Shown here piece after piece: positions 3,415 to 10,951 of a stretch of DNA of 64,000 nt; within the stretch, counting starts at the first letter, position 1; every line of letters starts with the position of its first letter. Position numbers and translations under genes: made by a program. The DNA comes from Nitrospirota bacterium (GTDB lineage Bacteria > Nitrospirota > Thermodesulfovibrionia > Thermodesulfovibrionales > UBA6898). The DNA is taken from positions 38,234-102,233 of the forward strand of contig JAJZPM010000005.1 of assembly GCA_021811105.1 (NCBI GenBank). Direction: 5' to 3'. The notes below the pieces were generated by a model that was not told the origin of the DNA, did not search any database, and worked only from the letters and a program-made list of their open reading frames with translations.

Positions 3415-4758
3415 ATGAAACTCGCTATCATTTTCCCGCCTTTGCCTTTCGGCTGGACCCCTGTGGCCCCGCCGAGTCTCGAATATATTGCAGCCCTCAC
3501 CCGGAGGGTGGATCCTGATATTGAAATAGCACTGATCAGCGCAGGCGCCGACCCGGATGCTGTCGAAAGGCTGGAGTGCGACCTTGCTGCCATCAGCATC
3601 CTGACTCCTACGGCTGTGGGAGGGTACAAAATAGCTGAAAAGCTGCGGGCGCGGGGGATCAAGATTGTCTTCGGCAATATGCACGCCTCGGCGATGCCTG
3701 AAGAAGCCAAACAGCATGGGGACGCGGTGGTGATCGGGGAGGCCGAATCGGTATGGCCGGCGGTGCTGCGCGATTTTCGCGCCGGAAGGTTGAAGCCTTT
3801 TTACCGGGGAGATCAGATATCCCTCGACGATTTGCCTACGCCGCTATATGGAATGCTTAAAGGCAAACGCAAGCACCAATTCCGGATCGTGAATACTTCC
3901 CGCGGCTGCCCCTATAACTGTACCTTCTGTTCGGTCAAGCCGTTCTACGGACCGAGGATACGTTTCAGGCCAATCGATCATGTCGTGCGCGATGTGGCCG
4001 CCATACCGGAAAAGATGTACATAAACGGTGACGAAAACATCTGGTGGACCGGCAAGGCGGAGCGTGCGATAGATCTTTTTACCGCGCTCAAAGGAAGCGG
4101 CAAGCGTTGGATGGGGTTTGGCAGTCTTGGGCCTGTGCTTTCACCGGTCGGGTCCCGTATGCTGAACGCAGCCAGGGAGAGCGGACTACTTTCCCTATGG
4201 GTCGGATGGGAGTCCCTGACCGCCGACGGATTAAAGGCATACTCGGCCAGCGGCAAGATCGGCGTAGACCGGGAGCGGGCGGTGAAGACGCTCAGGGACC
4301 ATGGGATCGATGTTTCGCTTTTTTATATGCTCGGCAGCCGTCATGATTCGATGGAAGACTTTAAACGGTCCGTGGAGATTGCAGACAGGCTTGGCGTCAG
4401 CATGCATCCTTCCCTGACTGTTCCTTATCCGGGGACTAAGCTGCGCGAACAGTATGATGCGTATCTTTACAAGGATTTGGGCTGGGAATATTATAATGGA
4501 GCATATGCGCTGTTCGAGCATCCGGAGCCGGATATGACCCCGGAAGTCCGCGAAGAGCGGTTCTTCGAGACTGCGCTTGAGCTGCTGAGCCTCGGGCGGG
4601 TATTGCGGCATATGAAGAACGTCCCTCTGCGGAGCTTCCCGCACGCACATATACTTTCGCTTATGTCCCAGTTGCCTGTCAGGCACGGCATGAAGATAGC
4701 GTATGAAAAATGGAAGGCAGAGAGAAAATTGGTGGCCGAAAAAAGGCGTAAGATATGA
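3415..4758 (+). CDS. B12-binding-domain radical SAM protein (class B), paralogue 1
   Basis: The N-terminal MKLAIIFPPLPFGW...LEYIAA region resembles a B12-binding domain. The CxxxCxxC motif is NTSRGCPYNCTFCSV. It is clearly paralogous to 6961-8367. Confidence 0.85.
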   Translation: MKLAIIFPPLPFGWTPVAPPSLEYIAALTRRVDPDIEIALISAGADPDAVERLECDLAAISILTPTAVGGYKIAEKLRARGIKIVFGNMHASAMPEEAKQHGDAVVIGEAESVWPAVLRDFRAGRLKPFYRGDQISLDDLPTPLYGMLKGKRKHQFRIVNTSRGCPYNCTFCSVKPFYGPRIRFRPIDHVVRDVAAIPEKMYINGDENIWWTGKAERAIDLFTALKGSGKRWMGFGSLGPVLSPVGSRMLNAARESGLLSLWVGWESLTADGLKAYSASGKIGVDRERAVKTLRDHGIDVSLFYMLGSRHDSMEDFKRSVEIADRLGVSMHPSLTVPYPGTKLREQYDAYLYKDLGWEYYNGAYALFEHPEPDMTPEVREERFFETALELLSLGRVLRHMKNVPLRSFPHAHILSLMSQLPVRHGMKIAYEKWKAERKLVAEKRRKI

Positions 4759-4761
4759 TCG

Positions 4762-4860
4762 ATGAAGACATTTGATTATGAAATCCCTCCCAACCTCCCT
4801 TTGTAAAGGGAGGAAAGTTCCCCATCGTTGGCAAAGAGGGAAAGGGGGAGTTTTTTTTAT
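4762..4860 (+). repeat. Dispersed hairpin repeat, copy 1 (ATGAAGACATT..AAATCCCTCCCAACCTCCCTTTG-TAAAGGGAGG..GGGGGAGTTTTTTTT)
   Basis: Shares long identical blocks with 57576-57750 and 12650-12805. It contains the CCTCCCTTTGTAAAGGGAGG hairpin. Confidence 0.8.
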
Positions 4861-4886
4861 TATGTCATCATGCTGAAAGCTGACAG

Positions 4887-4901
4887 CTGAAAACTGATAG
4901 C
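4887..4901 (+). repeat. 15-mer CTGAWWACTGATAGC, copy 3 (ctgaaaactgatagc), 22 nt upstream of the ATG at 4923
   Basis: Direct reading. Confidence 0.85.
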
Positions 4902-4922
4902 CGATTAAGGAGGTCATTGCCT

Positions 4923-6419
4923 ATGTCCGAACAGCCATCAACCCCAATAAATAATTCCGAAGCCGAGCGCCATCGTCTCACCGAGGACGTGCTCAGATTT
5001 ATCGAGGCGGGGGTGGACTCCGAGGTCCCGGATTTTAATGACTACGCGCTCAGGATGTTCGCTCTTCACTATGAGGTGAATAGCATCTTCAGGGAGTTCT
5101 GTGACGCCAAGAAGGTGAAGCCGGGCGACATTAATCGCTGGGAAGATATCCCGATGGTCTACAACGACGTCTTCAAAACACATCTTGTCGCCTCGTTTCC
5201 TCTGGAAAAATCCGTAATGGCGTGTCTGACCGGCGGTACCACAAGCCTGACCCAGCGGGGCCGCATCTTCCGCGATGAAGACGGCAAACGGCTTGTCTTT
5301 TCGGCAAACAAGATGATGACCGGCTCGTACCTCTTCCCGGACTTCGAAGCCGGCGGGCGATGCCGCATTCTCGTCCTTGCGCCGAGTCCGGAAATGGCGC
5401 CTTCCATGGGTATGGCTATAGGCATAGACCAGACACGCCGCCATTTCGGTACGCCCGACAGCAAGTTTCTTCTGGGGAAGTCGGGCATCCATATCAATGA
5501 GCTTCTGAAGGCGCTGCGTGAGTCGGAGGCGAGCGGTGTCCCCGTGGCGCTGATAGGGGCCACGTCGGCCTATGTCTATTTCTTTCAGGCCTGCCGCCGC
5601 AAGAAGATGAAGTTCTGCCTGCCGCCCGGCAGCCGGATATGCGACGGCGGCGGGTATAGAGGGCGTTTTGGAAAGTTGACCCGAGCCGACTACTATGCTA
5701 TGGTGCAGGAGACGCTTGGCATACCCGGGAGCCACTGTGTAAACGTGCTCGGCGAGGCCGAGACGGCAACGAACCTCTTTGACGATTCCCTTCGCAGGAA
5801 GGTGAAGGGCCTGCCTTTTCGCGAGCGGTCGCGGCCGGTGCCGCCGTGGTGCAGGGTGCGGGCTATGAGCATAGATGATCTCAGCCCCCTTCCCGACGGC
5901 GAGATCGGGCTTCTTGCGCACTGGGACCTGGCCAATGTGCCGACCGTACTCGCAGTGATTACCGATAATCTCGGATACACGACTGACAATGGCAGGGGCT
6001 GCGAGATGGTGGGCAGGGCAAAGATCGAAAACGGCAAGGTCTCTCCGCTTCCTGACGAGACTGCCGGTAGTCCTATGGGCGACTCCATGATCTTCAGGAT
6101 GCTCGAACGGTATGTGAACTTTTCGATCGAGCTGAAGATGGCCATGGCCAAGAGCCCCGAAGTCGAGCCGAGCGTGCGCGAGGAGGTCGAAGCAAGGCCC
6201 GGATCTCTCCCCTCCTGTCCCCAGGTGGTGGACGAGATCCTCGTTTCGCAGCAGGAGGCCGAGGCGGCCGAGATGCGCGACGAGGCCCTCGGCGCGTTCA
6301 AGGACCAGACGGACCGGCCCCTTGAGTGGTTCGAAGAAGAGGCAAAGAAGCAGAAACTGGCTGACCACCCCGCAGGCCTCAAGTCGGAGAAGCCGGGTAA
6401 GAAGGAGGGGAAAAAATAG
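4923..6419 (+). CDS. LuxE/PaaK-like acyl-adenylate-forming enzyme (acyl-protein synthetase family) with a ~90-aa charged C-terminal tail
   Basis: AAGGAGG lies 9 nt before the ATG at 4923. The overall N-terminal pattern (FALHYE.N..FREFC...W.DIP.V....FK) and the LTGGTTS.TQRG P-loop-like motif resemble the LuxE family. Family assignment is from memory, not a search. Confidence 0.55.
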   Translation: MSEQPSTPINNSEAERHRLTEDVLRFIEAGVDSEVPDFNDYALRMFALHYEVNSIFREFCDAKKVKPGDINRWEDIPMVYNDVFKTHLVASFPLEKSVMACLTGGTTSLTQRGRIFRDEDGKRLVFSANKMMTGSYLFPDFEAGGRCRILVLAPSPEMAPSMGMAIGIDQTRRHFGTPDSKFLLGKSGIHINELLKALRESEASGVPVALIGATSAYVYFFQACRRKKMKFCLPPGSRICDGGGYRGRFGKLTRADYYAMVQETLGIPGSHCVNVLGEAETATNLFDDSLRRKVKGLPFRERSRPVPPWCRVRAMSIDDLSPLPDGEIGLLAHWDLANVPTVLAVITDNLGYTTDNGRGCEMVGRAKIENGKVSPLPDETAGSPMGDSMIFRMLERYVNFSIELKMAMAKSPEVEPSVREEVEARPGSLPSCPQVVDEILVSQQEAEAAEMRDEALGAFKDQTDRPLEWFEEEAKKQKLADHPAGLKSEKPGKKEGKK

Positions 6420-10607: not shown

Positions 10608-10734
10608 ATGTTTTTCACTAAGTTATAGCTGTCGGAGGGGCTGCGGAAAATAAAGCTATTTGTGTGAAATTACTCACTTGTGTTTTGTCTCCTTCAATCG
10701 GCTTCCCGACACAACGTAAGTAAATTCGCCCTGA

Positions 10735-10763
10735 TCGCCAGGAGCGAAATTGGTATGTATAAT
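10735..10763 (+). promoter_or_regulatory. Candidate sigma70 promoter (TCGCCA-17-TATAAT preceded by TG)
   Basis: TATAAT at 10758-10763 and TCGCCA at 10735-10740, about 55 nt upstream of the sORF at 10819. Confidence 0.35.
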
Positions 10764-10818
10764 GCAACAGTAATGGCAATCGAGGAGCTTTTATGCGCAA
10801 TGGGAAGGGGGTGGCGGC

Positions 10819-10881
10819 ATGAAGAAGCTTACGTATGTAAGGCCTAAGGTAGTAGGCACGGCGAGCGTACATCCGTGCTGA
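10819..10881 (+). CDS. Candidate 20-aa sORF MKKLTYVRPKVVGTASVHPC
   Basis: Found by hand translation. GGGGGTGG lies about 7 nt upstream. It sits between a promoter-like element and a long stem-loop, in the 500-nt gap after the third B12-rSAM gene. Confidence 0.25.
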   Translation: MKKLTYVRPKVVGTASVHPC

Positions 10882-10892
10882 GAAAGTACGAA

Positions 10893-10951
10893 GGGGTGGG
10901 ATGAGGCTGCTCCAAGGAAGAGGAGCCGTCATCCCTCCCGCGGACTTTTTA
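10893..10951 (+). terminator. Long imperfect stem-loop (core GGGATGA...TCATCCC), with a T5 run 9 nt downstream
   Basis: ggggtgggatgaggctgctcc-aaggaag-aggagccgtcatccctccc then gcggacttttt. The T-tract is not adjacent to the stem, so it is not a canonical terminator. Confidence 0.35.

Follow-up and report, generated by a model that had tools for sequence, protein, structure and literature searches.

Radical SAM cassettes beside a distinct System II cytochrome c synthase suggest heme tailoring in Nitrospirota and Geobacteraceae

Heme a and heme o are tailored by CtaA and CtaB, and these products, like heme d1, are non-covalent cofactors that are not routed through CcsBA, the synthase of System II cytochrome c maturation. 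Chemically altered heme is also known from c-type cytochromes, namely cytochromes 579 and 572 of Leptospirillum, in the phylum Nitrospirota, whereas in Geobacter-type electron transfer the multiheme cytochromes are generally assumed to hold unmodified heme c, its potentials being set by the protein. Here we analyze a 64,000-nucleotide stretch of a Nitrospirota bacterium genome (GenBank assembly GCA_021811105.1, contig JAJZPM010000005.1, positions 38,234 to 102,233 of the forward strand; hereafter the window), in which three class-B (B12-binding) radical S-adenosylmethionine (rSAM) genes, a LuxE-like adenylating enzyme and a 113-aa membrane protein lie downstream of ResB and CcsA, the parts of a System II synthase (Table 1). 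Judged from sequence, this enzyme set, the heme-attaching machine and the giant cytochromes encoded nearby suggest that bacteria may remodel heme before its attachment.

Passages of PMC10114771 describe BchE, the nearest named family of the third rSAM (rSAM3), as a class-B enzyme that oxidizes and cyclizes a porphyrin propionate and that has resisted purification; rSAM3 differs in scoring below the BchE cut-off and in having CcsBA and cytochromes as cassette partners. Heme d1 synthesis is likewise a tetrapyrrole side-chain tailoring for one cytochrome class, with radical SAM chemistry on propionates attributed to NirJ in the same passages, but NirJ is a SPASM rSAM rather than a B12 enzyme. In Wolinella, extra CcsBA proteins are encoded beside particular cytochromes (CxxCK and CX15CH) and are said in passages of PMC10663686 to keep the conserved pockets, whereas the cassette clade has lost a lysine. 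The CcsA/ResB pairs GSU2890/2891 and Gmet_0592-0594 were earlier suggested to be dedicated to nearby cytochromes (passages of PMC2700814), and the passages on dedicated System II synthases in these two sources (PMC10663686, PMC2700814) name no radical-SAM or adenylating partners. In its working the cassette resembles heme tailoring coupled to a System II synthase of its own; it belongs to none of the BchE, LuxCDE and hopanoid systems.

An initial annotation of the window had proposed a pathway acting on an adenylate-activated acyl or peptide substrate and had overlooked the upstream ResB and CcsA genes and the multiheme cytochromes, which point to cytochrome c maturation rather than to a lipid product or to one of the peptides that are made on ribosomes and modified after translation (RiPPs). 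Upstream of the window start, a run of multiheme cytochrome genes ends in a 1985-aa and a 950-aa protein, both matching TIGR01904; the larger carries 35 CxxCH, 11 CxxxxCH and one CxxxCH motif, and a PDB search returned no solved relative of it. Within 10 kb, each of the 28 core rSAM3 loci (fetched loci with rSAM3 identity of at least 55%) had at least one of CcsA (25 loci), ResB (24) and a multiheme cytochrome (24), with LuxE nearby in 12 and rSAM1/2 in 8. The linked cytochromes belong to unlike families. We conclude that the cassette is real, widespread in metal-reducer lineages and not a free-standing acyl or peptide pathway, and that it is very probably tied to cytochrome c maturation.

Among 30 LuxE loci, several of them short, rSAM1 and the membrane protein gene were each present in 26, rSAM3 in 24, CcsA in 23 and rSAM2 in 7. 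The three rSAM genes and LuxE described initially as a block are conserved and functionally linked, but the layout with all three rSAMs is a minority form. Across 201 Nitrospirota genomes, which include related genomes and are not independent counts, we found the rSAM3 family in 39, the rSAM1/2 family in 27, LuxE-like proteins in 17 and TIGR01904 in 68. The genomes with rSAM1/2 (27 of 27) and with LuxE (17 of 17) all lay within the 39 with rSAM3. In a second phylum (201 genomes), LuxE of at least 44% identity occurred in four genomes, each of which also has rSAM3; 16 further genomes are LuxE-positive, and these lack rSAM3. Thus rSAM3 is the core of the cassette and rSAM1/2 and LuxE are optional, a poor fit to an obligatory chain starting at LuxE. 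The earlier idea that all three rSAMs act as such a chain on a LuxE-activated substrate is not supported, with 22 of the 39 rSAM3 genomes and 12 of the 27 rSAM1/2 genomes lacking a LuxE match.

These conservation data also refute the view that unrelated genes came to lie side by side by chance in a mobile island, to which we give practically no weight. The window block does look assembled from parts: its rSAM3 is 79-82% identical to that of loci of another cassette type but, among loci with a LuxE 80-90% identical to that of the window, most have an rSAM3 that is only 57-62% identical, so rSAM3 was probably swapped in and the block is probably a mosaic. Yet the replacement restored an orthologue to the same slot, and the gene order recurs in Geobacteraceae and is conserved across two phyla. 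The nested presence, a natural rSAM3-LuxE fusion (P0185) that links both proteins, and a parallel paralogous system argue against chance as well. In that system, a paralogous rSAM pair (46-53% identical to rSAM3 and 39-49% to rSAM1/2) repeats the cassette pattern more loosely, with a membrane protein nearby in 13 of 18 loci, a ResB-like protein in 9 and CcsA within 10 kb in 4; the ResB count comes from an iterated local hidden Markov model (HMM), and four of the ResB-like open reading frames (ORFs) compared with Pfam gave two sub-cut-off matches and two none. In loci L062, L067, L135 and L138 of the paralogous system, the rSAMs are accompanied by iron transport genes of FtrD-like/FTR type, by two ResB-like genes and by a CcsA of short form.

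The cassette also has a signature in CcsA. The window protein, which matches structure 7s9y, carries the motif WANQVKGSYWNWDPVE, in which Lys206 stands in place of a Trp and Val215 in place of the Lys of WD-x-K-E; the WWD tryptophans and Asp (W201, W210, W212 and D213) are kept, and H135, H231 and H269 are invariant. The three other full WWD CcsA proteins of the host genome retain the Lys. Lys-less CcsA formed a single clade (39 rows; Shimodaira-Hasegawa-like approximate likelihood ratio test (SH-aLRT) support 99; the rSAM, CcsA and LuxE trees were all made by a quick method), found in all but one of the 39 rSAM3 genomes (38), and the exception is a 490-contig assembly. A single further genome with this clade carries an rSAM3 cut by a contig end. 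Among rSAM3-negative genomes, 39 of 40 CcsA read retained Lys or Arg; this reading covered 41 of 45 genomes with a match (all but G063, G075, G211 and G217), and CcsA below E 1e-60 were read for part of the sample. An extra Trp change marks the CcsA subclade that accompanies core rSAM1/2, with the Trp present in one locus that has rSAM2 (L107). The 78 CcsA HMM matches comprised 71 Lys-less proteins, four short ones with Lys or Arg, two degenerate second copies and one 64-aa fragment. A 240-bit cut for the Lys-less clade is leaky, with one Lys-keeping match at 246 and five genomes with Lys-less CcsA at 218-227, and in six high-scoring genomes (G207, G074, G156, G125, G122 and G117) the motif was assigned by score only.

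Published work on these positions allows more than one role. Arg128 of CcmC, at the same motif position, pairs with a heme propionate in a salt bridge (passages of PMC10457321), and the Campylobacter jejuni changes K988C and W979C abolish synthase function (passages of PMC11322641). Passages of PMC10663686 also propose that K842 and W833 of Helicobacter hepaticus line the pockets for the CxxCH cysteines beside the vinyls. Whichever pocket role holds, the heme site of this CcsA, as read from its residues, is different, and rSAM3 is a better guide to this difference than CxxxxCH is.

In another explanation, the enzymes modify the cytochrome polypeptides, both by acylation and by C-methylation of residues like that of methyl-coenzyme M reductase by Mmp10/QCMT, while the change in CcsA simply serves non-canonical CXnCH sites. 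We regard this as unlikely, although rSAM1/2 occur in TIGR01904-positive genomes only (27 of 27), their weak best matches include the QCMT family, and dedicated CcsBA for odd motifs are known, with K842 and W833 lining the Cys pockets (passages of PMC10663686). Lys-less CcsA also adjoin CxxxxCH cytochromes far from any rSAM in one genome (G442), and odd heme motifs are common beside Lys-less CcsA. However, 37 of the 68 TIGR01904 genomes lack rSAM3, and five CxxxxCH-rich genomes of this kind have Lys-keeping CcsA only (15 of 15), which argues that CxxxxCH needs no change in CcsA; conversely, eight rSAM3 genomes without a TIGR01904 match still have Lys-less CcsA. A shared polypeptide target also sits poorly with the unlike families of the linked cytochromes, and cytoplasmic Fe-S/B12 enzymes would need to reach exported proteins. 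By eye, neither the rSAM nor the LuxE sequences have a signal peptide, and their catalytic domains lie right at the start, so these enzymes would more easily act on a small molecule that is exported than on an exported apoprotein.

All three rSAMs pass the Pfam cut-offs for the B12-binding and Radical_SAM domains, and the CxxxCxxC motifs first reported for rSAM1, rSAM2 and rSAM3 (RGCPYNCTFCS, RGCPYRCSFCS and RGCNQYCSFCS) are present, at residues 163, 197 and 204. The paralogy of two of them is likewise borne out, rSAM1 and rSAM2 being 48.5% identical to each other and each about 23% identical to rSAM3; for rSAM2, a second start at 7066, with a ribosome-binding site, agrees better with homologue lengths. 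In an NCBIfam profile search no cassette protein reached an equivalog cut-off, and the sole strong score was that of rSAM3 against the BchE model TIGR02026 (407 bits, cut-off 481; true BchE representatives score 761-770). In a tree of 96 rows, three BchE rows and six unnamed ones fall together with the rSAM3 family (100 SH-aLRT), which has an N-terminal segment, PxYH(S/C)G..E..G.W, in common with BchE. A PDB search with rSAM3 returned distant rSAMs only. The best NCBIfam matches of rSAM1/2 were weak, including the QCMT family at 49-56 bits (cut-off 360), and weak rSAM matches to ladderane and hopanoid models were seen, those to the hopanoid models HpnJ and HpnR at 47-152 bits against cut-offs of 578-650.

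The absence of partner genes noted initially for the known pathways was upheld in most respects. No LuxC was found in the five cassette genomes by profile search, and BchH and BchM were over cut-off in none of them (a BchH/CobN-like protein of G029 scored 806 bits against a cut-off of 829); CobQ, which we count in favor of heme tailoring, was over cut-off in four of five. For hopanoids the statement needs correction, as a squalene-hopene cyclase lies on another contig; such a cyclase was present in three of the five cassette genomes and was not found in two single-contig genomes, G018 (91% complete) and G030 (96%). Hopanoid, bacteriochlorophyll and Lux pathways were rejected, with scores below the model cut-offs and partners missing.

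LuxE enzymes activate fatty acids, and their acyl-accepting Cys lies in a GC motif right after the core. The 498-aa protein of the window is of LuxE type, as first suggested: it matches Pfam LuxE (67 bits, cut-off 24.9) and a solved LuxE (7xc6, E 6e-13), and its model shows a PaaK-like ANL core at about residues 11-365 followed by a low-confidence flexible tail. It shares the Pfam family, ANL fold and, in long forms, a C-terminal Cys with LuxE of LuxCDE, but it scores 63.5 against an NCBIfam LuxE cut-off of 550 and lacks a LuxC partner, and the RGC(S/A) or similar motif that outgroup LuxE have after the core is replaced, the Cys lying about 65 residues downstream or being lost. Cytochrome-linked LuxE-like proteins form one clade (21 rows, 96 SH-aLRT) separate from 14 other LuxE rows, and the neighbors of outgroup LuxE were LuxC in all three cases tested. 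Relatives in genomes titled Nitrospirae or Nitrospirota are 79-93% identical, with a few in Desulfuromonadales and one in a Chloroflexota-labeled bin. The tail had been singled out as Glu/Lys-rich, and its last 90 aa are indeed 30% Glu plus Lys, but it is not mere low complexity: Cys432 is conserved as SCPQ in 44 of 45 long-form ORFs (some from duplicated loci), the remaining one being cut by a contig end. Middle forms carry CPCGE, and short forms, including that of G442, have no such Cys. In the fusion P0185, the C-terminal region consists of five repeats of a Cys-bearing 14-residue unit resembling the single tail motif of the window LuxE. Two loci (L024 and L071) have tandem duplicated short LuxE-like genes without the C-terminal Cys, possibly encoding a heterodimer.

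Of the small ORFs interspersed among these genes, also reported initially, the 113-aa membrane ORF is real and conserved, with His13 and His93 invariant in 47 sequences, whereas the 90-aa ORF has no counterpart in other fetched loci. The 113-aa protein is modeled as a three-helix bundle (pLDDT 89) and is a candidate heme carrier; its match to Pfam CopD is weak (21 bits, cut-off 32), an Atlas match to CopD scored 0.77, and its fold matches generic helical bundles only (best Z 9.6, rmsd 3.3, 97 aligned). A divergent version accompanies the paralogous rSAMs, with the HD motif kept and the KH motif present in most.

The product could instead be a special lipid anchor or surface-glycan component for secreted cytochromes, made from a LuxE-activated fatty acid that rSAMs methylate or cyclize, CcsBA merely being in the same island. 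We consider this somewhat less probable than polypeptide modification. The established role of LuxE in fatty-acid activation is in its favor, as are START-domain fusions on paralogous rSAM3, TMTC-like and other glycosyltransferases and a carbamoyltransferase inserted in the cassette, and the weak ladderane and hopanoid matches. It leaves unexplained why BchE is the nearest named relative, why the CcsA heme site changes in grades with the enzyme set and why the membrane protein has two invariant His, and it is further weakened by the missing LuxC, by rSAM3 mostly occurring without LuxE and by the two single-contig genomes in which no hopene cyclase was found. Less probable again is a stand-alone small-molecule or RiPP pathway in which an adenylated acyl or peptide substrate would yield, for instance, a GeoRSP-linked peptide or a redox shuttle. 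The rSAM3-LuxE fusion would suit it, as would the GeoRSP trio with PqqD, found in the window 12-14 kb downstream and, in G288 and G442, close to the cassette, but GeoRSP was not seen within 10 kb in most loci. Moreover, no conserved precursor-size ORF was seen among ORFs of at least 60 aa, the 90-aa ORF being unique to the window; LuxE is optional, and the link to CcsA, ResB or multiheme cytochromes holds in all 28 core loci.

We therefore favor, on balance, heme as the substrate of the cassette, tailored for the dedicated CcsBA and giving a modified c-type heme; we infer from the observations above what the substrate is, in which order the steps run and what each protein does. Under this proposal the cassette would be an add-on to System II maturation that supplies modified heme to surface or periplasmic multiheme cytochromes. 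Cytoplasmic rSAM3 would act first: much as BchE works on Mg-protoporphyrin ester, it would oxidize by radical chemistry, close a ring on or methylate a propionate of heme b or of a porphyrin precursor, although we put forward propionate chemistry in particular only tentatively. Where present, the LuxE-like enzyme would next adenylate a carboxylate (a heme propionate is our guess), leading to a thioester on the tail Cys432 or to transfer to an amine or alcohol, and rSAM1/2 could add further B12-dependent methylations. The His-bearing membrane protein may then pass the product on. The dedicated CcsBA would receive it, and a WWD site without the basic residue, and with rSAM1/2 also without the Trp, would suit an altered cofactor. 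Finally, the cofactor would be attached to some hemes of the neighboring cytochromes, shifting their redox potential. A fuller version is more speculative still, and doubtful as a whole: metal-reducing Geobacter and Nitrospirota would make an undescribed covalent cofactor, a c-type heme that a BchE-like radical enzyme remodels to an oxo-propionate or a chlorophyll-style fifth ring and that LuxE and rSAM1/2 cap and methylate further. After export, a CcsBA of its own would join this cofactor to giant surface cytochromes, and the family would also be a living model for the origin of the chlorophyll ring-E cyclase.

Several points weigh against heme tailoring. Class-B rSAM enzymes mostly methylate, and rSAM3 is only 33-35% identical to true BchE. 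Because LuxE is missing from 22 rSAM3 genomes and eight short LuxE ORFs (one from a duplicate strain) have no C-terminal Cys, a thioester would be no general substitute for BchM methylation. The loss of Lys is a single event on the CcsA tree, so its match with rSAM3 may reflect shared island inheritance rather than co-adaptation, and the placing of K842 and W833 in the Cys pockets means that the CcsA change may reflect the choice of protein motif; several linked cytochromes do have CX4CH, CX5CH or CX12CH-like motifs. One rSAM3-negative genome (G027) is an exception with a degenerate Lys-less motif. In the paralogous system, rSAM3 is often dispersed, with the low CcsA linkage given above (4 of 18), four short CcsA near the paralogous rSAMs retain Lys or Arg, and some rSAM3 paralogues are fused to the START-type lipid-binding domain. 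The glycosyltransferase and carbamoyltransferase insertions, found inside the cassette in several genomes, point the same way.

The cassette is apparently undescribed: we found no description of it in the literature, with subscription journals mostly outside coverage, and the terms heme and cytochrome are absent from a 2026 review of B12 radical SAM enzymes (PMC12931638). If true, a modified heme c route would represent a new cofactor and a new tuning of extracellular electron transfer, would give a function to an rSAM3 family often auto-annotated as a chlorophyll enzyme in non-phototrophs, and would open BchE chemistry to study through a soluble substrate. Should heme prove not to be the substrate, the cassette still marks a step in the maturation of very large surface cytochromes that calls for an explanation. 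One Geobacteraceae genome, which we take to be Geobacter sulfurreducens and whose rSAM3 gene by position adjoins the GSU2890/2891 pair, has a 27-heme cytochrome, rSAM3, the membrane gene, CcsA, ResB and LuxE in a single run, flanked by CxxxxCH cytochromes, YedE and GeoRSP; this version makes the cassette directly testable.

Table 1. Features of the window, with positions counted from its first nucleotide
Feature	Position	Strand	Basis
ResB/CcsB subunit, System II cytochrome c synthase	271-1329	+	Pfam ResB 43 bits; adjoins cassette in most long loci
CcsA, predicted dedicated heme exporter/ligase	1530-2360	+	Pfam Cytochrom_C_asm 124 bits; alignment; motif survey; clade 99 SH-aLRT
Putative lipoprotein, no known family	2409-2939	+	No Pfam/NCBIfam match; tblastn matches in 18 fetched loci
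Four-helix-bundle protein, probably a passenger	3010-3399	+	TIGR02436; matches in just 5 fetched loci
rSAM1, class-B radical SAM, putative accessory tailoring enzyme	3415-4758	+	447 aa; Pfam
LuxE-like adenylating enzyme, cytochrome-linked clade	4923-6419	+	498 aa; Pfam LuxE, PDB match, fold, tree
90-aa ORF	6560-6832		No counterpart in any other fetched locus
rSAM2, rSAM1 paralogue, optional	6961-8367	+	468 aa; Pfam
Three-helix membrane protein, 113 aa	8506-8847	+	47 sequences; model pLDDT 89
rSAM3, BchE-related class-B radical SAM, cassette core	9129-10607	+	492 aa; TIGR02026 407 bits; tree
AbrB/MazE-like antitoxin and 97-aa ORF, probable toxin-antitoxin pair	11109-11668		
Downstream island part, loosely linked	11721-24890	+	Beta-helix protein, second ResB, PhnD-like binding protein, TPR, YedE, SaoE-like, cupin, GeoRSP trio
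PhnD-like binding protein, TPR protein, YedE putative selenium transporter, SaoE/SO_0444-like transporter fused to extra domain	17700-22299		YedE 386 bits
Complete GeoRSP trio: PqqD, rSAM/SPASM, SPASM	22684-24890		TIGR04303 545 bits; TIGR04304 278 bits, just below cut-off
518-aa ORF, BNR/sialidase-propeller-like repeat pattern, lower-GC stretch	62370-63926	-	Pattern by eye

The lipoprotein gene frequently sits between CcsA and rSAM1 in the fetched loci, and AbrB/MazE-like pairs also occur inside or beside the cassette in loci L052 and L027/L031. Genes of the downstream island, including GeoRSP, are also near the cassette in G288 and G442 and were not seen within 10 kb in most Nitrospirota loci; the PhnD-like, TPR, YedE and SaoE-like genes also lie near it in Geobacter loci. 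A LuxE-less cassette (L059, 15814-18872) has two more radical SAM genes and a small flavin-binding-like ORF between ResB and CcsA, and blocks of genes for TMTC-like TPR glycosyltransferases, heptosyltransferase-like proteins, carbamoyltransferase and SPASM rSAM are inserted in the cassette in L018, L074-L075 and L078.

Upstream of the window (L001; contig C31, 9954-36217), seven multiheme cytochrome genes are accompanied by NHL-repeat proteins, a PPIase-like protein and a 702-aa probable outer-membrane protein, and the run resembles a porin-cytochrome and secretion locus. A second CxxxxCH cytochrome, of 1845 aa, is encoded on contig C72. Cytochromes linked to the cassette in L069, L119, L121, L123, L070 and L127 have possible non-canonical heme sites (CX12-13CH, CX5CH or C-terminal CXnCxxH). 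An uninformative promoter and terminator scan gave 15 and 21 sites, compared with 10.0 and 11.7 in shuffles.

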